Source: an uncultured Gammaproteobacteria bacterium (GTDB lineage: Bacteria > Patescibacteriota > Patescibacteriia > CAYZDG01). From it: DNA of 60,755 nucleotides. Numbering within the stretch: position 1 is the first letter of the stretch; each line of letters starts with the position of its first letter. Below, in pieces: positions 1-58,252 of the stretch. The translations under genes and the position numbers were made by a program. Under the pieces are notes generated by a model that saw only the letters and a program-made list of their open reading frames with translations, made no database searches and was not told the DNA's origin. Location of the stretch: NCBI GenBank assembly GCA_964536515.1, contig CAZHXI010000001.1, forward strand, positions 97,480-158,234, in the 5' to 3' direction.

Positions 1-2312
1 TCGCCGCGCCGAACTCGTGGACGTGGAACGTGCTCAATCCGGGCGTCGCCGCCCTGGATAGCTCCAGCGGCAACCGGGCAACCGTACGTGCGGTGGACAA
101 TGGCAGCACCCAGCTGCAGGCACGCCTGGGCGGCTTCAGCACGCCCGGCTCCTCCGACATAACGGTTACGCTGCCCAACCCGCTGCGCCTGGGTGCGGTA
201 ACGGGAGGGCAGTGCCGGAACAGCGTCATCACGGCAGAGTTCACCCGCCCGCTGGATGCCTCCACGGTACCCGGCAATATCTTGGTGGAAGAATTCAGCG
301 GCGGCGTATGGACCACGGTCGGCGCCACGGTACGGGTCTCCGCTGCCGGCTACGGCCGTACCGTCGTTACGCTCACCCCGCCCGGCATGCTGTCGGAGTC
401 ATCGCCGTACCGGCTGTGGGTGCGGGGCGGCGGAGCCGGCATCCGCGACCAGTTGGGCCAGCAGCTGCAGGACGACGACGGCTCGTACCCCGCGTTCAAG
501 ACGGTCGCCCTGGGCACGCCGCCGCGCGAGGTCTGCGCCGTCAGCAGGGTCGAGGTTACCCGGAATACCGTGCCGGTACGCACCGATACCTTCCTGTGCG
601 GCGGAACGAATAACTGCGGCGGCGACGATGATCCAGCTACGGCGGGCAACCAGCACGCGTTCCGCGCCCAGGCTCGCGCCGCCAGCGGGGACATAGTTAG
701 CGCCAGCTACCGCTGGACCGTGCCGCGCGGTGGGAACCTGGTAACCGTTACGCCGAACCCGGCCGTGGCGCAGGACGTTACGCTGACCGCCGGCAACCAG
801 AACGGCAGCGCTACCGTAGTGGTGGACGCCACCAACGATTACGGCAGCGCCCGGGGCAGCGTGGGCGTGCGGCTGTTCCTGTGCTCCAACCCGTGGCCCA
901 GCCCGACCGCAGCGGGGGACTGGGGTCCGTTCCTGGATAACGACACCGGCTTCTCGTTCTTCTACTGCCGCGACGACGGCAGCCCCGCCACGACGACGGA
1001 CGACCTGCCGCCGCTGCCCACGCCGACCCGTCGCAACATGGCCGGAGACCTCTTCCGCGAGATTATCTTCCTGCCCGGCGCCGCCGGCGGCGAAGTCAAT
1101 CCGGCGAACGGCGTACCGTACATCGACTACCTGCCGTCCATTACAGTGGACGAGAACGAGGAGGTTCGGTTCTACGTCAACGCCCACGACCCCGAGAACG
1201 ATACGCTCAGCTTCGCGCCCGACGGCGGCTTCAGCAACCTGACGTGGTCGCCGATCAGCCCCATGGGCCCCCAGGTGCTCAACCTGGGCAGCAGCGCGCT
1301 GTTCACCTGGCGGCCGGGGCCCACGCAGGGAGGCAGCACCCCCGGGGGGTTCGTAGACTACACCGCAACCTTCCACGTCCGCGATTCTGCCGGCGACGCC
1401 GGCCACTCCAACCCCGTGCTCATCCGCGTCATGGATACCTCTCTGCCAGAGCCGCCGCCTCCGCCGCCCGCTAGCGTGCTGGTCAACTTCGCATCCGGCG
1501 ACCCGGTGCACGCCCTGGGCAACGTGTCGTGGAACCGGTCGAGCTTCGCAGACACCTACCGCGTCTACCGGCGTGACGACGGCGCGGCCGGGGGCGGCGA
1601 CGGCAACGAGGAGGGCATCAGCTACGGCTACCCATCCGAGCTACGGAATCCGCTCCGCAGGGTGGCGGACGCCGTACGCAGCTGGGTGGCGAAGGTCATC
1701 TCGCCCATCGCCCGCGCCCTCAATATTCCCAGCAGCTTCGCCGCCGCTGCAGACATCGAGCCGCTGGGTTCGTACGTAGAGGTGGCTACGCCGCCCGTCG
1801 ACGATAGCTCCTGCGGCGCACGATGCGCCTACGCAGACTCTGGGGCGCCCGTCTCCCGCCGCCTGTGCTACGCCGTCAAGGCCTGCAACGAGGCTGGCTG
1901 CTCTGGCTTCTCGGCTCCGGCCTGCGGCGATGCGCCGCCGCCGAACACCCTGCCGACCGTAACCTTCGTGCAGCCCTCGACGCCCGGGCAGAACGTCCCG
2001 CTCGGATCGCCGTTCACCTTCAGGGCGCAGCTGGCAGAGGCAGATCCAGGCGACCACATAGCTAGCTACCAGTGGACCGTAGACGGCACCGCGCTGCCGG
2101 CGGTGAACGGCGACTTCGGCAGCGCCGAGACGGTGGAGGTTACGCGTACCTTCAGCGTCGCCGGCGCGCACACGGTCAGCCTCCGCGTTACAGACGGCAA
2201 CGGCGCGCGGCCCGTGCCTGACGCCAGCACCAGCGTCAACGCCCAGGCCAATGACGCGCCCGACGCCTGCATCATTAACCCCACCGGGCCGCAGCCGGCG
2301 TGGTGCACCTAG
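1..2312 (+). CDS. Cell-surface/secreted protein, 5'-partial (Ig-like repeats, C-terminal PKD-like repeat)
   Basis: The frame of ORF 30..2312 stays open to base 3, so the N-terminus lies outside the window. 'NVLNPGVAALDSSSGNRATVRAVDNGSTQLQARLG' looks like a bacterial Ig-like repeat. 'YQWTVDG...HTVSLRVTDGNG' looks like a PKD repeat. Confidence 0.6.
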   Translation, partial: AAPNSWTWNVLNPGVAALDSSSGNRATVRAVDNGSTQLQARLGGFSTPGSSDITVTLPNPLRLGAVTGGQCRNSVITAEFTRPLDASTVPGNILVEEFSGGVWTTVGATVRVSAAGYGRTVVTLTPPGMLSESSPYRLWVRGGGAGIRDQLGQQLQDDDGSYPAFKTVALGTPPREVCAVSRVEVTRNTVPVRTDTFLCGGTNNCGGDDDPATAGNQHAFRAQARAASGDIVSASYRWTVPRGGNLVTVTPNPAVAQDVTLTAGNQNGSATVVVDATNDYGSARGSVGVRLFLCSNPWPSPTAAGDWGPFLDNDTGFSFFYCRDDGSPATTTDDLPPLPTPTRRNMAGDLFREIIFLPGAAGGEVNPANGVPYIDYLPSITVDENEEVRFYVNAHDPENDTLSFAPDGGFSNLTWSPISPMGPQVLNLGSSALFTWRPGPTQGGSTPGGFVDYTATFHVRDSAGDAGHSNPVLIRVMDTSLPEPPPPPPASVLVNFASGDPVHALGNVSWNRSSFADTYRVYRRDDGAAGGGDGNEEGISYGYPSELRNPLRRVADAVRSWVAKVISPIARALNIPSSFAAAADIEPLGSYVEVATPPVDDSSCGARCAYADSGAPVSRRLCYAVKACNEAGCSGFSAPACGDAPPPNTLPTVTFVQPSTPGQNVPLGSPFTFRAQLAEADPGDHIASYQWTVDGTALPAVNGDFGSAETVEVTRTFSVAGAHTVSLRVTDGNGARPVPDASTSVNAQANDAPDACIINPTGPQPAWCT

Positions 2313-8347: not shown

Positions 8348-9106
8348 ATGGCCACCGTCGTTCTCGCCATCGCCGGCCTGGTAGCCGGCAGCTTCGTTAG
8401 CGCCTGGCTGCACCGGCTCCGCACCGGTACATCTGTGGTCGTCGGCCGCTCGGCCTGCCCCAGCTGCGGCCACCAGCTCGCCTGGTACGATTTGCTGCCC
8501 GTGGCTAGCTGGTTGATGCTCCGCGGCCGCTGCCGCTACTGCAGCCAGCCGATTAGCTGGCAGTACCCTGCGCTGGAGCTGGCGCTGGCCATCCTGTTCG
8601 TCCTCGCCCCACTGGGCAGCGGCGCCATCGCCGTAGCGGCGTACCTCGCCGCCTGCCTGCTGCTGGTTGCCGCCGCTACGTACGACGCCCGCTGGATGGA
8701 GCTGCCGGACATCATCAGCTGGCTGCTGGTGGCCGCGGGCGTACTGCGGATAATCGGCGTTGCGCTGGCGAGCGGTACCTGGGCTCCGGTGCTTTTGAAC
8801 GCCGCGCTCGGCGCTGCCGTGGCCGGCGGCTTCTTTGCGCTGCAGTACCTCGTCTCACGCGGAAGGTGGATTGGCAGCGGCGACATTATCCTGGGCGCCG
8901 CCGCCGGCCTGCTGGTCGGATGGCCGGGTAGCCTGCTGGTGCTGGTGGTGGCCTACGTGGTCGGCGGAGCGGTGGCCGTGCCGCTGCTGGCGCTCCGCCG
9001 GCGCGGGTGGTCTACGGCGGTGGCATTCGGCCCCTTCATTGCGGTGGGAACGTGGGTGGCGATGCGGTTCGGCACCCAGCTGACCCAGCTGCTGGGCTGG
9101 GTGTAG
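8348..9106 (+). CDS. pilD: Prepilin peptidase (A24 family, PilD-like)
   Basis: Zn-finger region 'CPSCGHQLAWYDLLPVASWLMLRGRCRYCSQPISWQYPALE'. Catalytic-Asp contexts 'YDARWMELPD' and 'GSGDIILGAAAG'. The protein is polytopic. Confidence 0.9.
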   Translation: MATVVLAIAGLVAGSFVSAWLHRLRTGTSVVVGRSACPSCGHQLAWYDLLPVASWLMLRGRCRYCSQPISWQYPALELALAILFVLAPLGSGAIAVAAYLAACLLLVAAATYDARWMELPDIISWLLVAAGVLRIIGVALASGTWAPVLLNAALGAAVAGGFFALQYLVSRGRWIGSGDIILGAAAGLLVGWPGSLLVLVVAYVVGGAVAVPLLALRRRGWSTAVAFGPFIAVGTWVAMRFGTQLTQLLGWV

Positions 9107-9114
9107 GTAGCCGG

Positions 9115-9208
9115 GTCGAAAATTCGTTGGTCGATTGTCGGGGGTAGGGTATACTTGGGTTGATTCTCAGGTGCTTTTATGCTACGACCAACGATCAACG
9201 ACCAACGA
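9115..9208. repeat. Inverted CGAnnAA-heptad cassette, copy 1 (no cargo)
   Basis: The left arm is 9115-9140 (GTCGAAAATTCGTTGGTCGATTGTCG). The right arm is 9185-9208 (CGACCAA CGATCAA CGACCAA CGA). TCGTTGGTCG is the exact reverse complement of CGACCAACGA. Confidence 0.75.
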
Positions 9209-10120
9209 TCCCGGCGTCCCGCCTTCACCCTCCTAGAGGTGCTGGTGGTAATGGCTATAATGGCGATCATCATGGGCGTTTCGGTCTACCAGTTCCGTCG
9301 GGGTGAGGCCAGGCAGGACCTACGGACCGCCGCCGACGACATAAAGGCTGCCTGGGCCGAGATGCAGGGCCGGGCGCTCGCCGGTTCGCCGACGCCGTCG
9401 GATGCGGTTCGCGAGGTCGGGGTGTTCGTGCAGCCGTACGGCGATCGCCCAACCACGGCCCACGGCCTGCTGCTCTACGGGACCCTGCCCGATCCGGATA
9501 TTCCGTATTCGACGTTCGTGCCCGACGACCCAACTCCCGCCGAGGTCGAAGACTACGCCGGCATGCTGCCCGGGCAGCAGGTGCTCAACCAGCCGTTCGT
9601 GCTGCTGGGCTGCGCTACGGTACTCTCGCCTCGCCCCTCGCGTTGCTGGATACCCATTCCCGAGTACTCGCCGGTGCTGCCGCCGAATACCTACATAGAC
9701 AAGGGGAGCATTCAGCTGGCTGCCTCAACAACCGATGCCGGTGGCCTCTACGATTTCGTACCATTCCTCCTGGATGCTACCAGCAATCCGTTCGCCTTCC
9801 ACCCCCACTTCGACTTCGAGCGGTGCGTGGCGGCGGAGTGGCTGCCCCGGTACCAGTACTACTACAATAATCCTACGCCGGGGAGCGAGAACCCCGACGT
9901 AACAATGGCGAGGTACCTGTACCTGGGCATTCGGGCGCCGCAGCCAACCTTTACCATCAATGGCTGGCAGGGCTGCGGCGTGCTACGGTTCGCGCTGCGC
10001 AGCAATCTAGACGAGCGCCTACCCGAGGACCTGCGAGCCAAGCTGTGGCTGCAGTTTGACATGCGAACCGGCCGCATCAGCACGGCTAACGAGGAGGCCG
10101 GCCTACCGGACCGTCCGTAG
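9179..10120 (+). CDS. Prepilin-type N-terminal cleavage/methylation domain protein (pseudopilin)
   Basis: N-terminus 'MLRPTINDQRSRRPA/FTLLEVLVVMAIMAIIMGV' has the class III signal peptide pattern. The gene follows pilD. Confidence 0.8.
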   Translation: MLRPTINDQRSRRPAFTLLEVLVVMAIMAIIMGVSVYQFRRGEARQDLRTAADDIKAAWAEMQGRALAGSPTPSDAVREVGVFVQPYGDRPTTAHGLLLYGTLPDPDIPYSTFVPDDPTPAEVEDYAGMLPGQQVLNQPFVLLGCATVLSPRPSRCWIPIPEYSPVLPPNTYIDKGSIQLAASTTDAGGLYDFVPFLLDATSNPFAFHPHFDFERCVAAEWLPRYQYYYNNPTPGSENPDVTMARYLYLGIRAPQPTFTINGWQGCGVLRFALRSNLDERLPEDLRAKLWLQFDMRTGRISTANEEAGLPDRP

Positions 10121-10121
10121 C

Positions 10122-10718
10122 ATGGCACGATTCCGCCCCGGCCAGACGCTCATCGAGGGCATAATCGCCATCGCCGTCGTTACGGTAGGCTTGATGGGCG
10201 TCATCGGCCTCGCCATTAGCAACCAGGCTTCTGCCCAGGCCATCGGCGACCGGGCTGTGGCAACCGCCCTGGCGCGCGAGGGGCTAGAGGTGGCCAAGAA
10301 CATACGTGACAGCAACTGGCTAGCGGGTCGGCCGTTCAGCCAGGGTTTGCTCGACGGCACCTCCGCCGTTCCGGAGAGCAGCTTCGCCCAGGTTGGCTCC
10401 CATTGGGGGCTAGCCTTCGGGCCATACGGCGACTTCGCCGACGACGCAACCCAGGTTACCTGGCTGCCATCAGATGGCCGCTACGGGCAGCGGGACGGCG
10501 GCGATGCCACCAAGTTCCGGCGCCGGCTGGAGCTCTCTGCCCTGTGTCGGCCCAGCGGCGATACCGGCTTGAACTTTACCTACGACGCCTCGGGTTCCAC
10601 CGGCTGCGGCAGCGGCGAGCAGGTGGTCGGCGTGCGCGTGCGCAGCTTCGTGCAGTGGCCCCAGGGCCCGGGGCTGCGGACCATCGTCCTCGAGCTGAGG
10701 CTGTTCGATTGGAGGTAG
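10122..10718 (+). CDS. Prepilin-type protein (pseudopilin)
   Basis: 'MARFRPG/QTLIEGIIAIAVVTVGLMGV' is a prepilin-like leader followed by a hydrophobic helix. The ATG at 10122 is in frame within track ORF 10056..10718. Confidence 0.7.
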   Translation: MARFRPGQTLIEGIIAIAVVTVGLMGVIGLAISNQASAQAIGDRAVATALAREGLEVAKNIRDSNWLAGRPFSQGLLDGTSAVPESSFAQVGSHWGLAFGPYGDFADDATQVTWLPSDGRYGQRDGGDATKFRRRLELSALCRPSGDTGLNFTYDASGSTGCGSGEQVVGVRVRSFVQWPQGPGLRTIVLELRLFDWR

Positions 10719-10721
10719 GGG

Positions 10722-11162
10722 TTCGTTTGTCGAAAATTCGATTGTCGAAATATCTAGGCTTATGGTTAGCGATTCGCAGGGAAAAAATTATCGAGATTTG
10801 ATTGCCTGGCAGAAGGCAATGGATTTAGTCACATTAGTTTACAAGCTGACTGAGAAATTTCCGCAGCATGAGCTGTACGGATTAACATCTCAAATTCGGC
10901 GTTGCGCAGTGTCTATTCCCTCGAATATTGCCGAGGGTAGCAGGCGAGGGACGAGAAAGGAGAATGGGCACTTCCTATATATTGCTTACGGTTCGGGAGC
11001 GGAGCTCGAAACGCAGCTCGAAATCGCTGATCGACTAGGCTACAGCAGCGACGTCACTCGTACGGAAACACGCCGAGTCCTCGATGATGTTATGCGGCTT
11101 CTCAATCGTTTGACGAAGAGCTTCACGGTATGATTCGACCAACGACCAACGACCAACGACGA
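10722..11162. mobile_element. Inverted CGAnnAA-heptad cassette, copy 2, carrying a four-helix-bundle gene
   Basis: The left arm is 10722-10750 (TTCGTTTGTCGAAAATTCGATTGTCGAAA). The right arm is 11134-11162, (CGACCAA)x3 followed by CGACGA. The enclosed ORF is visibly AT-richer than the flanks. Mobility is inference only. Confidence 0.45.
10762..11133 (+). CDS. Four-helix-bundle protein ('23S rRNA intervening sequence protein' family; Avd-like fold)
   Basis: 'DLIAWQKAMDLVTLVYKLTEKFPQHELYGLTSQIRRCAVSIPSNIAEGSRRGTRKENGHFLYIAYGSGAELETQLEIA' matches the family hallmark motifs (IPSNIAEG..., GS..ELETQL). Confidence 0.85.
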   Translation: MVSDSQGKNYRDLIAWQKAMDLVTLVYKLTEKFPQHELYGLTSQIRRCAVSIPSNIAEGSRRGTRKENGHFLYIAYGSGAELETQLEIADRLGYSSDVTRTETRRVLDDVMRLLNRLTKSFTV

Positions 11163-11801
11163 TCTCGTTCCGGCTTCACGGTCATCGAGATCATCATAGT
11201 GATGGCTATCTTCAGCATCGTGCTGGGGGTCATCATCCAGATATTCATATTCACCACCCGTACGCAGCGTCGGAGCCGCAGCGTGCAGGAGGCTTACGCG
11301 CAGGGTAGGGCAGCGGTCGAGGGGGTGGCGCGGGAGCTGCAGAACGGCTCGGTGGACTACGGCTACTACTCCGACCCCGCCCACGCCGCAGATAGCCTCG
11401 AGGCCCAGCCCGTCGACGTTACCGCGCTGCGCGACTCCCAGGGCCAGTCGGTACGGTTCCGCTGCGTGGAGAACCTGGCCAACGGCGCGGAGCAGGCTTG
11501 CGATGCTGACACTCCCGAGCGCGGGCAGGTGGAGCTGTGCCGCGGCAGCGGGTGCGACGCTACCCCGCCCGCCTGGGCTGGCGTTACCGATGAGGCTACC
11601 GACGTCACCGCTTGGTCGGTATGGCTGGGGCCGGAGGACGATCCGTTCCGACGCGATCCGGATGACGTAGCTAGGTACCTCGCCGATGTTCAGCCCTGGC
11701 TAACCGTGGCGGCCACGGTGCAGCCCGCGCCCGTCTCCGGCGTTCAGCTGCCCGAGGCCAGGGTGCAGGCTACGGTCTCCAGTAGGTCGTACCTACGCTA
11801 G
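11130..11801 (+). CDS. Prepilin-type N-terminal cleavage/methylation domain protein
   Basis: 'MIRPTTNDQRRSRSG/FTVIEIIIVMAIFSIVLGV'. Its ATG overlaps the stop of the four-helix-bundle gene (ATGA). Confidence 0.8.
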   Translation: MIRPTTNDQRRSRSGFTVIEIIIVMAIFSIVLGVIIQIFIFTTRTQRRSRSVQEAYAQGRAAVEGVARELQNGSVDYGYYSDPAHAADSLEAQPVDVTALRDSQGQSVRFRCVENLANGAEQACDADTPERGQVELCRGSGCDATPPAWAGVTDEATDVTAWSVWLGPEDDPFRRDPDDVARYLADVQPWLTVAATVQPAPVSGVQLPEARVQATVSSRSYLR

Positions 11802-11802
11802 T

Positions 11803-17833
<6,031 letters not shown>

Positions 17834-25992: not shown

Positions 25993-26643
25993 ATGACTAG
26001 CATGGAGTACACGCAAGCAGCAGCGAGGAGCTCGTCTCTGCGGATAGCCGCAGCAACGGCTGCTGCCGTCCTCGTCGGCACCGTCGCCTTCGGCGCGCTG
26101 GAGGCGGGCTACCTGGCGGCCGCCGTGGACGAGGACCAGGTGGAGATTTCGCTGGTGGTGGACGCGGTTCTCTCCATCAGCAGCCCGGCCAACGTCAGCC
26201 TCGGCACCATCAACGGCACCGGCCAGAGCGTCACGAGCAGCGCCGACTTCAACGTCATCACCAACAACACCTCCGGCTACCGCTTCGACATCAAGGCGTC
26301 GAGCAGCCCGGCCATGCGCTGCTCGAGCGGCGGCTGCGCGGTGAACAGCGACTCGTTCGCCGACTACACCCCGGCTACCGCCGACGTGCCCGAGACCTGG
26401 AGCGTGGCGGCGAGCGCCAGCGAGTTCGGCATCTCGGCCAGCGGCACCGCGGCCAGCTCCAGCTTCCTGACCGGCCAGACGTACTACAACCTCACCACCG
26501 CCTACCGCTGGATCGCCGGGCAGAACACCCAGACAACCGGCGCCACCACCAGCGTCATCTACCGGGCGGAGATCGGGGCGAGCAAGGTGCAGCCGACGGG
26601 CGTGTACACGGCTACCACCACCGCCCAGGTGACCACGCTGTAG
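25993..26643 (+). CDS. Secreted beta-rich protein (WxL/CscB-like), duplicate A
   Basis: The ATG at 25993 is in frame within track ORF 25774..26643. It has a signal-like N-terminus. The C-terminal 190 aa are identical to 26721..27359. Confidence 0.6.
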   Translation: MTSMEYTQAAARSSSLRIAAATAAAVLVGTVAFGALEAGYLAAAVDEDQVEISLVVDAVLSISSPANVSLGTINGTGQSVTSSADFNVITNNTSGYRFDIKASSSPAMRCSSGGCAVNSDSFADYTPATADVPETWSVAASASEFGISASGTAASSSFLTGQTYYNLTTAYRWIAGQNTQTTGATTSVIYRAEIGASKVQPTGVYTATTTAQVTTL

Positions 26644-26651
26644 ATCGGCGG
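26082..26651 (+). repeat. 570-bp perfect direct repeat, copy 1
   Basis: Line-by-line comparison with 26798-27367 (offset 716 bp) showed no mismatch. Confidence 0.9.
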
Positions 26652-26720
26652 TTACAAGATGCTCCCGAATGGGGTATAGTATATCGGTAAGTTGGACTGT
26701 GGATAACAGGTAAACAGACA

Positions 26721-27359
26721 ATGAATTTAGAGAGCAAGAGAACTACGGCAGCTGGGCGTTTGGTCTTAGCGGCTATGGGCGTTTCGCTCTGCAGCTACGT
26801 CGCCTTCGGCGCGCTGGAGGCGGGCTACCTGGCGGCCGCCGTGGACGAGGACCAGGTGGAGATTTCGCTGGTGGTGGACGCGGTTCTCTCCATCAGCAGC
26901 CCGGCCAACGTCAGCCTCGGCACCATCAACGGCACCGGCCAGAGCGTCACGAGCAGCGCCGACTTCAACGTCATCACCAACAACACCTCCGGCTACCGCT
27001 TCGACATCAAGGCGTCGAGCAGCCCGGCCATGCGCTGCTCGAGCGGCGGCTGCGCGGTGAACAGCGACTCGTTCGCCGACTACACCCCGGCTACCGCCGA
27101 CGTGCCCGAGACCTGGAGCGTGGCGGCGAGCGCCAGCGAGTTCGGCATCTCGGCCAGCGGCACCGCGGCCAGCTCCAGCTTCCTGACCGGCCAGACGTAC
27201 TACAACCTCACCACCGCCTACCGCTGGATCGCCGGGCAGAACACCCAGACAACCGGCGCCACCACCAGCGTCATCTACCGGGCGGAGATCGGGGCGAGCA
27301 AGGTGCAGCCGACGGGCGTGTACACGGCTACCACCACCGCCCAGGTGACCACGCTGTAG
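26721..27359 (+). CDS. Secreted beta-rich protein (WxL/CscB-like), duplicate B
   Basis: It has a distinct N-terminus (MNLESKRTTAAGRLVLAAMGVSLCSY) followed by sequence identical to duplicate A. It is preceded by an AT-rich spacer containing TATAGTATAT. Confidence 0.6.
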   Translation: MNLESKRTTAAGRLVLAAMGVSLCSYVAFGALEAGYLAAAVDEDQVEISLVVDAVLSISSPANVSLGTINGTGQSVTSSADFNVITNNTSGYRFDIKASSSPAMRCSSGGCAVNSDSFADYTPATADVPETWSVAASASEFGISASGTAASSSFLTGQTYYNLTTAYRWIAGQNTQTTGATTSVIYRAEIGASKVQPTGVYTATTTAQVTTL

Positions 27360-46503: not shown

Positions 46504-46512
46504 AACCAGCTA

Positions 46513-46601
46513 TTCATTGCGAGCGCAACGTAGTGGAGTGAAGCAATCACCTCAGTAAAGGGGGAGATTGCTTCATTTCGCTGCGCTCCATTCGCAATGA
46601 G
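46513..46601. repeat. CATTGCGAG...GCAATC / GATTGC...CGCAATG hairpin repeat, copy a
   Basis: TTCATTGCGAGCGCAACG..GAAGCAATC-loop-GATTGCTTCATTTCGCTGCGCTCCATTCGCAATGA. It belongs to the same family as 48166-48274, 54963-55073 and the split copy around 51309-51608. Confidence 0.7.
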
Positions 46602-46675
46602 TAGCCTAATTCTAGGACCGGATGTATTCTATTTTCTAGATTCCCAGTCCTAAGTCCTCCGTCCTCAGTCCTACC

Positions 46676-47260
46676 ATGACCATCCTAGACATTGTCGTCG
46701 TCCTCATCCTGGCGGTGTTCTTCTTCAAGGGTTTCAGCCTGGGGCTCGTTCGGGCGGTGGGAACCTTCATCGGCCTCATCGTTGGCCTGTGGCTAGCCGG
46801 CCGCTACTACGAGGCCATGGGCGGCTGGCTGGTGGGCTGGGGCCTGCCCGAGGCGTTCAGCGCTGCGGCTGGGTACATTGCCACGTTCATTGCGGCGGTG
46901 TGGGCCGTATCGCTGCTGGTGTGGATGGCAGACCGCGTGTTCAAGTTCCTGGCCATCATCCCGGGAATGAAGCTGGCGAACAACGTGCTGGGCGGCGTGC
47001 TGCTGCTCATCGTCGGCACCATCGTCGTCGGAGTAGTGCTGTACGTGGCTGGGCAGTTCAGCGCGCCGGGCAGCGGCACCAAGCAGGCGCTGGAGAAGGC
47101 CCGCGTGGCCCCGCTGGTTACGGCGGCAGCGTGGGTGGCGGCGCCGCTCATTCCGACCGCAATCGAGCAGTACCAGCGCGTGGCGCCGGCAGCGGATGAG
47201 ATGATGCCGACGGCGGACGACATAGGGAACCTGCCCACGCCGTGGGGCGTGTCGAGGTAG
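46676..47260 (+). CDS. cvpA: CvpA-family membrane protein
   Basis: The N-terminus 'ILDIVVVLILAVFFFKGFSLGLVRAVGTFIGLIVGLWLA' and four TM helices are typical of the colicin V production protein family. Confidence 0.6.
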   Translation: MTILDIVVVLILAVFFFKGFSLGLVRAVGTFIGLIVGLWLAGRYYEAMGGWLVGWGLPEAFSAAAGYIATFIAAVWAVSLLVWMADRVFKFLAIIPGMKLANNVLGGVLLLIVGTIVVGVVLYVAGQFSAPGSGTKQALEKARVAPLVTAAAWVAAPLIPTAIEQYQRVAPAADEMMPTADDIGNLPTPWGVSR

Positions 47261-47262
47261 GG

Positions 47263-47350
47263 GTCGTTTGTCGGAAATTCGTTTGTCGAGGAGTCGAGCT
47301 ACTACTATGTCCCGCATTTTCGACCAACGAATAACGACCAACGAATAACG
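47263..47350. repeat. Inverted CGAnnAA-heptad cassette, copy 3 (no cargo)
   Basis: The left arm is 47263-47290 (GTCGTTTGTCGGAAATTCGTTTGTCGAG). The right arm is 47319-47350 (TTCGACCAA CGAATAA CGACCAA CGAATAA CG) and abuts the tatD ATG. Confidence 0.75.
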
Positions 47351-48163
47351 ATGATCTACGACAGCCACTGCCACCCCCACTTCGGGGACTACGCCGGCGA
47401 CCGCGACCAGGTGCTGGCGCGCTGCCTGCAGCACGGCATCGGCCTGGTCGCCGTGGGTACCAACCTGCGCGATAGCCAGGCTGCGGTAGATTTGGCCAGC
47501 CGCTACTCGCACGTGTGGGCCAGCGTGGGCCTGCACCCCAGCAGCGTGTACGACGAGGCGTTCAGCGTCCCCGCGTTCCGCAAGCTGTTCGGCCCGCGCG
47601 TCGTCGCGGTGGGCGAGACGGGGCTGGACTACTTCCATACCGAGGAGGCGTCCGTTACGACCGAGGAGCTGTTCGCCAAGCAGGTAGAGGTGTTCAAGGA
47701 GCACATCGCCCTGGCTCGGTCTAAGGACGTGCCGCTCATCCTGCACATCCGCAACGCGCGTCCGGTTGCCGGAGCTGACCGTCCGGCCGCATCGGCCTAC
47801 GCCGACGCGCTGTCTATTCTGCGCCGGCACCGCTGGCACCGCGGCGTGGTTCACTGCTTCGGCGGCACGCCGGAGGAGGCCAAGGCCTTTGCCGCTGCGG
47901 GGTTCTGCATCGGGTTCACCGCCAACGTTACCTACCCCAAGAACGACTGGCTGGTAGCGATTGCCGCCAGCCTGCCGCTGGACCGCATCCTAGTGGAGAC
48001 AGATAGCCCCTACCTGGCGCCGCAGGCAACACGCGGCAAGCGTAATGATCCATCGAACGTGGTTGAAGTCATAAAGAAGATCGCCGCTGCCCGCGGCATG
48101 CACTACGACGAGCTAGCCAAGGCCACGGCCGACAACGCGCGAAAATTGTTCGGCATTAACTAA
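47351..48163 (+). CDS. tatD: TatD-family metal-dependent hydrolase
   Basis: 'MIYDSHCHP', 'GETGLDY', 'LILHIRNA' and 'VETDSPYLAP'. Confidence 0.9.
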   Translation: MIYDSHCHPHFGDYAGDRDQVLARCLQHGIGLVAVGTNLRDSQAAVDLASRYSHVWASVGLHPSSVYDEAFSVPAFRKLFGPRVVAVGETGLDYFHTEEASVTTEELFAKQVEVFKEHIALARSKDVPLILHIRNARPVAGADRPAASAYADALSILRRHRWHRGVVHCFGGTPEEAKAFAAAGFCIGFTANVTYPKNDWLVAIAASLPLDRILVETDSPYLAPQATRGKRNDPSNVVEVIKKIAAARGMHYDELAKATADNARKLFGIN

Positions 48164-50181: not shown

Positions 50182-50628
50182 CTACCGGAACCGCGCCGCT
50201 AGTTGGCCCCAGCGCTTACCGCGGATAACCTCGTTCGTCTCGGTTTCCTCTAGCTTGAACGCCTCGGTGAAGTAGGCGATTACCGCCTGGCTATCTAGCT
50301 GGTTCTGGCAGGTGTACACGTCTATCGAAACGAATCGGTCAGCCGGGAAGGTGTGGATGCTGATGTGGCTCTCGGCGATCATGACGAAGCCAGATAGGCC
50401 ACCCGGATCCTTGGTTTCGTTGCCGCCCACCCGTACGACGTAGGGCGTGGTGATGGTGTGCATGTGCAGCTTTGCCGGCAGCTGCTCTAGGCAACTGAAT
50501 ACGCCGTCCATGCTGTCCAGTAGACTGGCGTCGGCGCCGTAGCCATCTAGCATTAGGTGAACTCCGAAGTGGCTCAGCGACGCTGAATCATCCCGAGCAG
50601 TGCGAGGGATCCCACCCTGTTCATTCAT
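50182..50628 (-). CDS. speH: S-adenosylmethionine decarboxylase proenzyme (small prokaryotic type)
   Basis: Self-cleavage and active-site motif 'IAESHISIHTFPA...SIDVYTC'. The ATG at 50628 lies within the track ORF. Confidence 0.8.
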   Translation of the reverse strand: MNEQGGIPRTARDDSASLSHFGVHLMLDGYGADASLLDSMDGVFSCLEQLPAKLHMHTITTPYVVRVGGNETKDPGGLSGFVMIAESHISIHTFPADRFVSIDVYTCQNQLDSQAVIAYFTEAFKLEETETNEVIRGKRWGQLAARFR

Positions 50629-50733
50629 AGCAAAGGCAGTATACAGAAGCCAGCCCCAGCGGGGGAGGGGAATGTGAAACCGCCCCCTCACCTTTCGCTT
50701 TGCGAACAGGCGTGGGGGCGGTTCGGTGGTTGG

Positions 50734-51156
50734 TCAGCGTTCGTCGGTAGTGACGTACCGAGCATTGGCTGTTTTCTCTTCGTCGGCCGTTGCAGCAAAT
50801 ATGCTGCTCGCGGCGACAATGTTCTTCGTGTAACTCCGGCATTCACCGGAGACTTCGAAGAAGGTACCGTGCGGATTCTTGTACACGTTGTACCGCAGGG
50901 TACGAACATCGAATCCGCTGTAGTCGAGCAGATCGTCGTACGCTGTTCCCAGGTATTGGGCGAGATCACCGGCGACCAGCTCTTCAAATGACTGCGGCTC
51001 GGGGTAGTCGCCCCGGTGATCGGCGGCGTAGTCGGTAATGGCGGCGCGGACCGCATTCAGCTGCGCCTTAGCTACAGCTTCGTCGTGCGTGTTGCCAAGG
51101 TAGGCAACTAACCCAACGGTGCCGACGATGAAGGCGACCACGAATACCTTAAACAT
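50734..51156 (-). CDS. Small membrane-anchored hypothetical protein (GspG-like 'DYAADHRGDYPEP' motif)
   Basis: N-terminal TM 'MFKVFVVAFIVGTVGLVAYLG'. A very AT-rich upstream region lies at 51157-51256. Confidence 0.45.
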   Translation of the reverse strand: MFKVFVVAFIVGTVGLVAYLGNTHDEAVAKAQLNAVRAAITDYAADHRGDYPEPQSFEELVAGDLAQYLGTAYDDLLDYSGFDVRTLRYNVYKNPHGTFFEVSGECRSYTKNIVAASSIFAATADEEKTANARYVTTDER

Positions 51157-51256: not shown

Positions 51257-51680
51257 GTGTCATTGCGAGGGGGCACGTAGTCGTGCCGACGAAGCAAGCT
51301 GCATCTGCTCAGTCGTCTTGAGGTACCTGGAGATCAACCCAGAACGGATTGTGGGTACAAATCAGCTGCAACTTCTTGGATCGCGACCCGCCCTTCAGCT
51401 GCTTCTCTCTGGCGATCGCTGATGCCGGATCGTCGTACTGCTCGAAGTGAACCAGCCGTTTGACGTTGTACCTGGCGGTGAATGACGAGGGGTACGTTTT
51501 GCAAACATGGTCCCAAACCCGTTGCGCTAGCTTACTCGTAACGCCGACGTACAGGGTAGTGCCCGTATAGTTTGCCAGAATGTAGACGTAGTATTTTTTG
51601 TTTCGCATAGCACGTGGATACAGGTTGCTTCGTCCCCTTCGACTCCGCTGCGCTCCGCTCAGGATCCTCGCAAGGACACG
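51257..51680. mobile_element. Split CATTGCGAG hairpin repeat with a GIY-YIG gene in its loop
   Basis: The left half, 51257-51299, is GTGTCATTGCGAGG...GACGAAGCAAGC. The right half, 51623-51679, is GGTTGCTTCGTC...CCTCGCAAGGACAC. The halves are complementary at the outer stem (13/14) and the inner stem (10/12). Mobility is inferred. Confidence 0.5.
51309..51608 (-). CDS. GIY-YIG nuclease family protein (small, URI-domain only)
   Basis: 'KKYYVYILANYTGTTLYVGVTSKLAQRVWDH...ASAIAREKQLKGGSRSKK'. The track ORF's 53-aa N-terminal extension is read-through of the repeat arm. Confidence 0.85.
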   Translation of the reverse strand: MRNKKYYVYILANYTGTTLYVGVTSKLAQRVWDHVCKTYPSSFTARYNVKRLVHFEQYDDPASAIAREKQLKGGSRSKKLQLICTHNPFWVDLQVPQDD

Positions 51681-51773
51681 GTGTTGGGTGGCAAAGCGGC
51701 CGTCTAGTACTTGCGCCGTCGCGAGACGGCGCTGGCGCTGGGGTTCGTGGGGTACGGTCGGTAGCATTGCTAG

Positions 51774-57863: not shown

Positions 57864-57871
57864 GATTGGGT

Positions 57872-58252
57872 ATGGAGGGCGACGCACCTGCAGCCGCGGT
57901 CGTCCGCACTCCGAAGGAGAGGTACCCGGTCGCCGTTTGGGCTGTAGGAATCCTGCAGCTCCTAGTGCTGCTGATTTGGGGGCTTCGGATGTTAACGGGA
58001 GGACTGGTTCGATTGGACTTAGTTCGTCTACTTACCGAGGGTTGGGGCTACCTAGTTGTTCTGTTCATCCTTAACCCACTTGTCTTCATTGGCGTAGTAG
58101 CTCTGTGCTACCGAAGGTTCCGGTGGAGCGTTTGGTCCGCGCTCGTCCTAGCGTCAGCGTTGAGCATTGTAGCTACGCTAGCCGGTTGGATAGCTTATAT
58201 CTTTTATACATTGTCTACGCGTTACCCATCTGGTATCTCAATTGTTTCGTAA
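57872..58252 (+). CDS. Small polytopic membrane protein inserted between rpsG and fusA
   Basis: ATG at 57872 (the track ORF starts at a TTG at 57866). It has 3-4 hydrophobic helices. It is visibly lower in GC than the flanking ribosomal genes. Confidence 0.45.
   Translation: MEGDAPAAAVVRTPKERYPVAVWAVGILQLLVLLIWGLRMLTGGLVRLDLVRLLTEGWGYLVVLFILNPLVFIGVVALCYRRFRWSVWSALVLASALSIVATLAGWIAYIFYTLSTRYPSGISIVS

Follow-up and report, generated by a model that had tools for sequence, protein, structure and literature searches.

Intervening sequences (IVSs) that carry an open reading frame (ORF) are known from the 23S rRNA of Coxiella burnetii and Leptospira and have been reported for Brucella and Xanthomonas too (PMC4990558). 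The Coxiella IVS is 428-444 nt long, ends in terminal inverted repeats that form a 28-bp stem, and has tandem GACAGAT heptamers before the start of its S23p gene; RNase III cuts at the first repeat, repeat number varies among strains, and a mobile origin of rRNA IVSs has been proposed since 1993 (PMC4990558). Here we analyze a 60,755-nt stretch of contig CAZHXI010000001.1 from an uncultured bacterium (hereafter, the window), in which a gene of the same protein family (hereafter, the cargo gene) lies between inverted arrays of a 7-nt unit at the stop-start junction of two co-directional pilin genes. We favor, with moderate confidence, the reading that this ~440-bp unit, cassette B, is an IVS-type PF05635 cassette located outside rRNA, between pilin genes, with arms that would be processed at the RNA level.

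The first-pass annotation of this DNA had pointed to the architecture of rRNA IVSs, and the comparison with Coxiella, in which RNase III cuts a stem with tandem heptamers around an ORF of the same type (PMC4990558), bears this out. The two elements agree in size, in the PF05635 ORF placed in sense orientation in the loop, in the stem-forming terminal inverted repeats, and in the tandem heptamers of the stem region. They differ in that rRNA IVSs sit in helix 9, 25 or 45, whereas the cassette sits between protein-coding genes; in that the cassette ORF is intact, whereas that of Coxiella is in decay and probably not translated; and in that the right arm of the cassette lies within coding sequence. 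Lying outside rRNA, the cassette does not strictly belong to the rRNA IVS class, and we regard it as a variant of that kind.

Two other kinds of repeat invite comparison. Genome-wide arrays of tandem heptamers, some of them convergently paired, have been reported without an explanation in Xanthomonas (GGGAATC) and Nostoc (PMC4692102), in Beggiatoaceae (TAACTGA), cyanobacteria (short tandemly repeated repetitive sequences, STRR) and Bacteroidetes (PMC4679880), and as families of a heptanucleotide repeated four times in Geobacter metallireducens (PMC2700814). Like the cassette arms, these arrays are tandem, 7-nt, mostly intergenic and genome-specific in sequence, often stand near start codons, and sometimes form convergent inverted pairs; unlike them, the arrays of the cassette form two arms around a PF05635 gene and share their heptad with cargo-less pairs. 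A term search of PMC4679880, PMC4692102 and PMC2700814 found no mention of PF05635 genes. MITEs (miniature inverted-repeat transposable elements) and repetitive extragenic palindromic (REP) elements resemble the cassette in being short and multicopy, in having inverted-repeat ends, and in their presence or absence at orthologous intergenic junctions, and the window holds three related copies with inverted ends in 60.7 kb. They differ from it in having unique terminal repeats instead of tandem 7-nt arrays, and the cassette carries a conserved non-transposase gene with no transposase partner identified.

The cargo protein scored 127.5 bits against PF05635 (cut-off 33.8) and 121.9 bits against TIGR02436 (cut-off 24), has, in an intact ORF, the conserved residue at each of the 23 columns that are invariant in an alignment of 37 family sequences, and matched the solved four-helix bundle XCC0516 (PDB 2GSC; E = 2.4e-28, residues 8-117), which forms a homopentameric ring according to literature cited in PMC4990558. 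Membership in the 23S rRNA IVS family of four-helix bundles, first proposed from two sequence motifs that are both present, is thereby established by profile. The ORF is AT-richer than its flanks, as had also been observed, with a GC content of 0.49 against ~0.66 in its neighbors and a third-codon-position GC content (GC3) of 0.52 against ~0.8; the cassette is compositionally foreign. The nearest named homologues of the cargo protein belong to metagenome-assembled genomes (MAGs) of Patescibacteria, or the candidate phyla radiation (CPR). Its closest homologue is 76% identical and has the gene layout of the window. The defense-system models searched gave no hit, and phage records held no homologue.

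The cassette stands where the first-pass annotation had placed it, between two genes of prepilin type (PF07963), with the cargo stop codon overlapping the downstream start as ATGA at 11130-11133. Two cargo-less copies of the arm pair had been claimed as well, and both are real (9115-9208 in copy A and 47263-47351 in copy C). In all three copies the left arm directly follows the upstream stop codon, within a common AGGTAG. For cassette B this stop is the TAG of pilin2 at 10716-10718, and the left-arm sequence quoted earlier, TTCGTTTGTCGAAAATTCGATTGTCGAAA, spans 10722-10750; it thus begins 4 nt past the stop and not 1 nt past it as had been stated, whereas the paired region does begin directly after the stop, at 10719. 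The right arm reads (CGACCAA)x3 CGACGA at 11136-11162, in agreement with the earlier description. Throughout the window, arrays of at least two CGAnnAA units followed by CGA occur only in copies A, B and C, and CGACCAACGA with at most one mismatch was counted 14 times against an expected 3.6 +/- 2.0, a number reached in 0 of 100 shuffles.

In predicted folds compared with shuffled sequences, the arms paired with -39.9 kcal/mol in copy A (z -4.0), -31.0 kcal/mol in copy B (z -2.7; 3 of 300 shuffles as low) and -34.0 kcal/mol in copy C (z -2.9), and the arms of copy B found each other in the minimum-free-energy fold of the whole 461 nt. The first description of the arms as imperfect inverted repeats built from one heptad holds. 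No known RNA family matched at the arms at E up to 1, and the window contains no rRNA. Upstream of copy C, the spacer between the genes for methionyl-tRNA synthetase (MetRS) and the CvpA-like protein holds a very stable hairpin of another kind (46509-46605; 43-nt arms, 11-nt loop; -72.7 kcal/mol for the spacer, z -8.3). Its arms do not consist of heptads, and a short 7-nt array (AGTCCTn) comes after it at 46646-46666.

The arrangement extends well beyond this operon. A metagenome scan with the family alignment returned 80 PF05635 loci, none of them located in rRNA; together with the window and a Terriglobales MAG (L103), 70 were usable. We scored inverted repeats between the 200 nt upstream and the 130 nt downstream of each gene, using the reversed sequence and 180 random positions as controls. 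A score of at least 24 was reached by 51 of the 70 loci (73%) compared with 3 of 70 reversed controls, and a score of at least 30 by 35 loci compared with one reversed control and 3 of the 180 random positions. Strict arrays of period 7 or 8 were found in ~43% of flanks compared with 5 of 180 controls, and the median arm length was 30 nt. In 54 of 64 loci the upstream neighbor shares the strand of the cargo gene; the median distance from its stop to the cargo start is 31.5 nt, which indicates that the arm fills the spacer. Inverted 7-8-nt arrays also surrounded all six plasmid copies examined from cultured bacteria (table). The question of whether other four-helix-bundle genes are flanked by such arrays can be answered in the affirmative for most sampled relatives of the cargo gene. 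The "23S rRNA IVP" (IVS protein) is reported as associated with CRISPR loci in a figure legend of PMC10910872, and cassettes within cas operons, such as those on the Anabaena and Picosynechococcus plasmids (L215, L218), may account for part of this association.

A scan from the side of the repeat gave the opposite picture. Searching for CGANNAACGANNAACGANNAACGA recovered more than 120 loci in many phyla, the source genome not among them, and an IVP gene lay between arrays only in L103, where it follows lipA and is bounded by TCGTTGG and CGAnnAA arrays; among the roughly 27 inverted CGAnnAA pairs in other genomes, that one alone has cargo. A gene with arms is the rule among the sampled members of the PF05635 family, in several phyla, but the converse is not true, most CGAnnAA pairs being cargo-less. 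We consider this general association of PF05635 genes with inverted arms and cargo-less hairpins to be the most interesting result of the analysis. We found no paper that links PF05635 genes generally to inverted heptamer arrays, a provisional statement given that subscription journals were thinly covered.

Orthologous pilin operons from groundwater metagenomes, designated by the L-numbers of their contigs, show the same junction in both states. From the pilin2 stop to the pilin3 start there are 10 nt in L205 and L206, 3 nt in L207 and 1 nt in L214, whereas L208-L210 and L211-L213 have a PF05635 gene with inverted arms at exactly this junction, built from TAGCTTG/CTACAAG in the former group and TAGGTTn/CTAnAAC in the latter; the ATGA overlap recurs in the L211 cassette. 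Because the junction is empty or filled with other heptads in relatives, the cassette is gained and lost, and this comparison supports the suggestion of a mobile cassette made on first inspection. The proteins at the junction in the window, L208 and L211 groups are 59-61% identical to one another and each has nearer relatives elsewhere, so independent insertions at this site are possible, as is a single ancient one, in a family of short proteins with a uniform identity of 55-65%. The last unit of each right arm and the sequence at the empty junction have 4-5 nt in common (window, CGAC; L208 and L211, CTAC) and there is no flanking direct repeat (compared segments: window 11157-11175, L205 4001-4015, L207 3181-3204, L208 3317-3355, L211 2487-2530), a pattern that could mean either that microhomology served as the insertion site or that the array grew out of local sequence. 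Elsewhere in these operons, pilin1 differs between the otherwise near-identical strains L211 (647-948) and L213 by a 300-nt in-frame indel, giving proteins of 389 and 289 residues.

The insertion has left its mark on the downstream protein. In copies A and B the right arm is read as MLRPTINDQR and MIRPTTNDQR, respectively, at the starts of two prepilins, and the ATG that precedes the arm is in both cases the only start that keeps the G/FT(V/L)IE cleavage motif in frame. The right arm of cassette B has been exapted by the downstream prepilin for its start and leader: it provides pilin3 with its start codon and nine additional leader residues. The public annotation begins pilin3 24 codons later (199 aa) and is mis-started because the true start is inside the cassette. 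Pilin3 orthologues fall into two groups, with either short leaders (M..RRRG/FTVIE) or long leaders resembling translated heptads (SYLQATSYKLQA, TLQPKTYNLKPT), and leader length follows the presence of the cassette. Conserved coding sequence does not account for the arrays, an objection that had been foreseen, since leaders in the cassette-free orthologues are short and have none of the residues encoded by the array. In copy C, a 13-codon ORF (47307-47348) spans the right arm and ends 2 nt ahead of the TatD start. The 1342-aa gene that comes after the pilins in the operon has three 8-nt units (ACGGGAAn) in its first codons, at 11817-11841, with no inverted partner seen.

Heptads are a property of the genome. 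At the junction of prepilin peptidase and pilin1, where the window has copy A, L208 and L213 each have a cargo-less hairpin in their own heptad, L205 has a hairpin of the TAGGTTn type, and L207 has none. In a cross-pairing matrix, arms of one heptad family paired with -22 to -45 kcal/mol overall (-22 to -38 in the window family, -41 to -45 in the L208 family and -25 to -43 in the L205/L211/L213 family), whereas window arms paired with those of other genomes at -9 to -24 kcal/mol; strong pairing, down to -41 kcal/mol, was also seen in a few cases between families other than that of the window. Other 7-nt arrays in the same locus matched the heptad adjacent to the IVP gene, with at most one mismatch, in 23 of 63 loci, compared with 73 of 1260 in a null drawn from other loci. 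The arms of each genome's cassette share a heptad family with its cargo-less hairpins, and the arms change together. L103 has the heptad of the window at 47% protein identity and L208 has another at 61%, which speaks against sequence-specific co-evolution of protein and heptad, on a very small number of cases.

We propose that the cassette would be transcribed together with its operon and that its arms would pair into a long imperfect stem to be cut by RNase III, by analogy with the homologous 23S IVS of Coxiella. Such a cut would free the mRNA of the cargo gene, with the cistrons on either side still usable, and translation of pilin3 would be coupled to that of the cargo gene through the ATGA overlap. 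The insertion is presumably tolerated, and the leader extension neutral, because the prepilin peptidase would remove the arm-encoded residues together with the leader. Cargo-less hairpins may be relatives of the cassette that are non-autonomous or have undergone internal deletion. The cargo protein, for its part, may bind the stem of its own element, as the accessory protein Avd of diversity-generating retroelements (DGRs) binds RNA stem-loops (bioRxiv 10.1101/2023.10.23.563531).

Several observations weigh against this proposal. Stem B is imperfect, with 16 of 21 Watson-Crick pairs in its best ungapped stretch, and is only moderately better than shuffled sequences. Among 278 mismatched positions in 58 IVP stems, G·U and A·C numbered 46 and 73, respectively, with no G·U excess, and the comparison of sense and antisense stability came out 23 to 31 (p = 0.14), with no bias toward the sense strand; selection on a sense-strand RNA stem is thus not visible. 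The 45 window ORFs scanned include no RNase III gene. Neither a transposase nor a clear target-site duplication was found, so that the word mobile draws on presence and absence only. Within hairpin A, the sequence TATACT, which five orthologous operons (window, L205, L207, L208 and L213) share without change 16-27 nt 5' of the ATG of pilin1, resembles a -10 box and suggests a promoter between the arms, in which case transcripts begun there would carry the right arm only; it is present also in L207, which is arm-less. A sigma-70 consensus scan of 8900-11400 found no promoter. The RNA reading is kept alive by the polarity of the arms, with 62% G+T on the left and 35% on the right, together with their co-orientation with the host operon; the idea that left arms have stops in all frames and right arms are open was not significant (p = 0.087). 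Arm complementarity may be kept by copying at the DNA level, which would be compatible with RNA processing. Thus, of the two alternatives offered by the first-pass annotation, the mobile cassette is supported by presence and absence, whereas the RNA-processing module that separates pilin cistrons is argued by analogy and met no signal of RNA selection.

The strongest rival, which we judge unlikely though not negligible, holds that the arms act at the DNA level only, as MITE- or REP-like mobile hairpins or cruciforms moved by a factor encoded elsewhere, with complementarity maintained through template switching or gene conversion and with RNA pairing and RNase III cutting incidental. On this account the two missing RNA signals are expected, and it also accommodates the genome-specific heptad families and presence/absence polymorphism at orthologous sites, the large excess of cargo-less over filled CGAnnAA pairs, the promoter-like box within hairpin A, and the genome-wide occurrence of heptamer arrays in other bacteria, including 70-75 convergent pairs in Xanthomonas (PMC4692102). 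It fares less well with arm polarity and operon co-orientation, which point to constraint at the level of the transcript, and with the homologous rRNA IVS, which is demonstrably processed as RNA (PMC4990558); the failure to find a transposase or target-site duplication counts against this explanation as it does against ours.

Considerably less probable is the view that the arrays are regulatory simple-sequence repeats, serving phase variation of pilins or binding a regulator, with the cargo gene as a passenger. Arrays of a 7-nt unit, not a multiple of 3, at the 5' end of two pilin coding sequences would suit a phase-variable switch in which gain or loss of a unit shifts the frame, heptamer copy number differs among Coxiella strains (PMC4990558), and a role in translational regulation has been suggested for intergenic heptamer arrays beside start codons (PMC4679880). 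Against this, the number of units did not change among four contigs from other samples that are near-identical or 97% identical (L001, L002, L203 and L204), nor did it vary between strains of L208 or of L211, a small sample. There are just three units, the inverted partner arm is left unexplained, and in copy C and many other cassettes the array lies outside the downstream coding sequence.

That the ORF is the Avd of a DGR is very improbable. The two share a homologous four-helix-bundle fold, with a pentameric barrel in Avd, and this likeness, noted at first inspection, stands; membership in Avd does not, since the weak similarities (18.9 bits against PF22296 and 20.1 bits against NF033474) are far below the cut-offs of 40 and 80 bits. 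An Avd is accompanied by a reverse transcriptase and by template and variable repeats, whereas the cassette has neither, its neighbors are pilins, and no reverse transcriptase matched among the 45 window ORFs scanned or adjoins the cassette. Finally, chance or conserved coding of the prepilin leader has next to no probability and was refuted: right arms A and B are indeed translated, but the shuffle tests, the cassette-less pilin orthologues without arm residues, and copy C, whose array precedes the TatD gene and is not part of it, all speak against it.

It is conceivable, and we put it forward tentatively as more doubtful than not, that PF05635 genes with arms belong, along with the far more numerous heptad hairpins that have no cargo, to a single pan-bacterial class of mobile hairpin. 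If so, a single class would explain ORF-bearing rRNA IVSs, orphan four-helix-bundle genes in operons and heptamer families such as STRR, and the orphan genes annotated "four helix bundle protein" thereby accounted for would number thousands, including those in cas operons. The pentameric protein would then be the element's own factor, which might bind the heptad stem and drive the spread or homogenization of the arms, by analogy with Avd. Three puzzles, namely the nature of rRNA IVSs, the role of the four-helix-bundle (S23p) protein and the genome-specific heptamers, so far treated separately, are joined in one testable design, in which filled and empty pilin operons allow comparison and the arms, as RNA or DNA, constitute a defined substrate on which to try RNase III and the protein.

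Features of the window and of the plasmid copies (plasmid positions refer to the comparison contigs)
Feature	Position	Strand	Description
Prepilin peptidase (A24)	8348..9106	+	Profile match
Cargo-less copy A	9109..9215	+	Between peptidase (ends 9106) and pilin1 (ATG 9179); fold -48.8 kcal/mol, z -5.5
Copy A arrays	left 9113-9140, right 9185-9208	+	Right array translated as leader MLRPTINDQR
TATACT in copy A loop	9150-9155	+	From orthologue comparison
Pilin1, prepilin-type gene	9179-10120	+	N-terminal methylation motif
Pilin2, upstream prepilin-type gene	10122..10718	+	198 aa; orthologue adjoins pilin3 in L205, L207, L214
Left arm of cassette B	10719..10758	+	G+T-rich 7-8-nt units: TCGTTTG TCGAAAAT TCGATTG TCGAAAT
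Cargo gene	10762..11133	+	123-aa four-helix-bundle protein, 23S-rRNA-IVS protein family (PF05635/TIGR02436)
ATGA overlap	11130..11133	+	Cargo stop overlaps sole possible pilin3 start codon
Pilin3, downstream prepilin-type gene	11130..11801	+	223 aa; G/FTVIE motif; leader lengthened by arm
Right arm of cassette B	11134..11164	+	Translated as residues 2-12 of prepilin leader (MIRPTTNDQRRS..)
Cargo-less copy C	47256..47360	+	Between CvpA-like gene (stop 47258-47260) and TatD gene (ATG 47351)
Copy C arrays	left 47261-47289, right 47321-47351	+	Array and fold analysis
Plasmid copy, Anabaena sp. 90 pANA02 (L215)	1192-1560		Between cas6 and cas4
Plasmid copy, Picosynechococcus PCC 7003 (L218)	1195-1551		Between cmr2 and cmr3
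Plasmid copy, Nostoc edaphicum			Between two ribonucleotide reductase genes
Plasmid copy, Geminocystis			Inverted 7-8-nt arrays
Plasmid copy, Nostoc punctiforme			Inverted 7-8-nt arrays
Plasmid copy, Gemmatirosa			Inverted 7-8-nt arrays

The window has a few further features of note. Between rpsG and fusA, a 128-aa ORF (57866-58252; GC 0.53, GC3 0.56) that is rich in hydrophobic stretches and looks membrane-like matched nothing in Pfam or NCBIfam, showed no arrays on its flanks by eye, and may be another foreign insertion in a conserved operon. A gene for a GIY-YIG domain protein and two neighboring genes on the minus strand (51309-51767 and 50182-51156) have GC3 values of 0.66-0.73, below the rest of the window. 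A 300-nt direct repeat with 98% identity, its copies 716 nt apart, lies at 26071-27086 in or near large genes resembling those of surface proteins.

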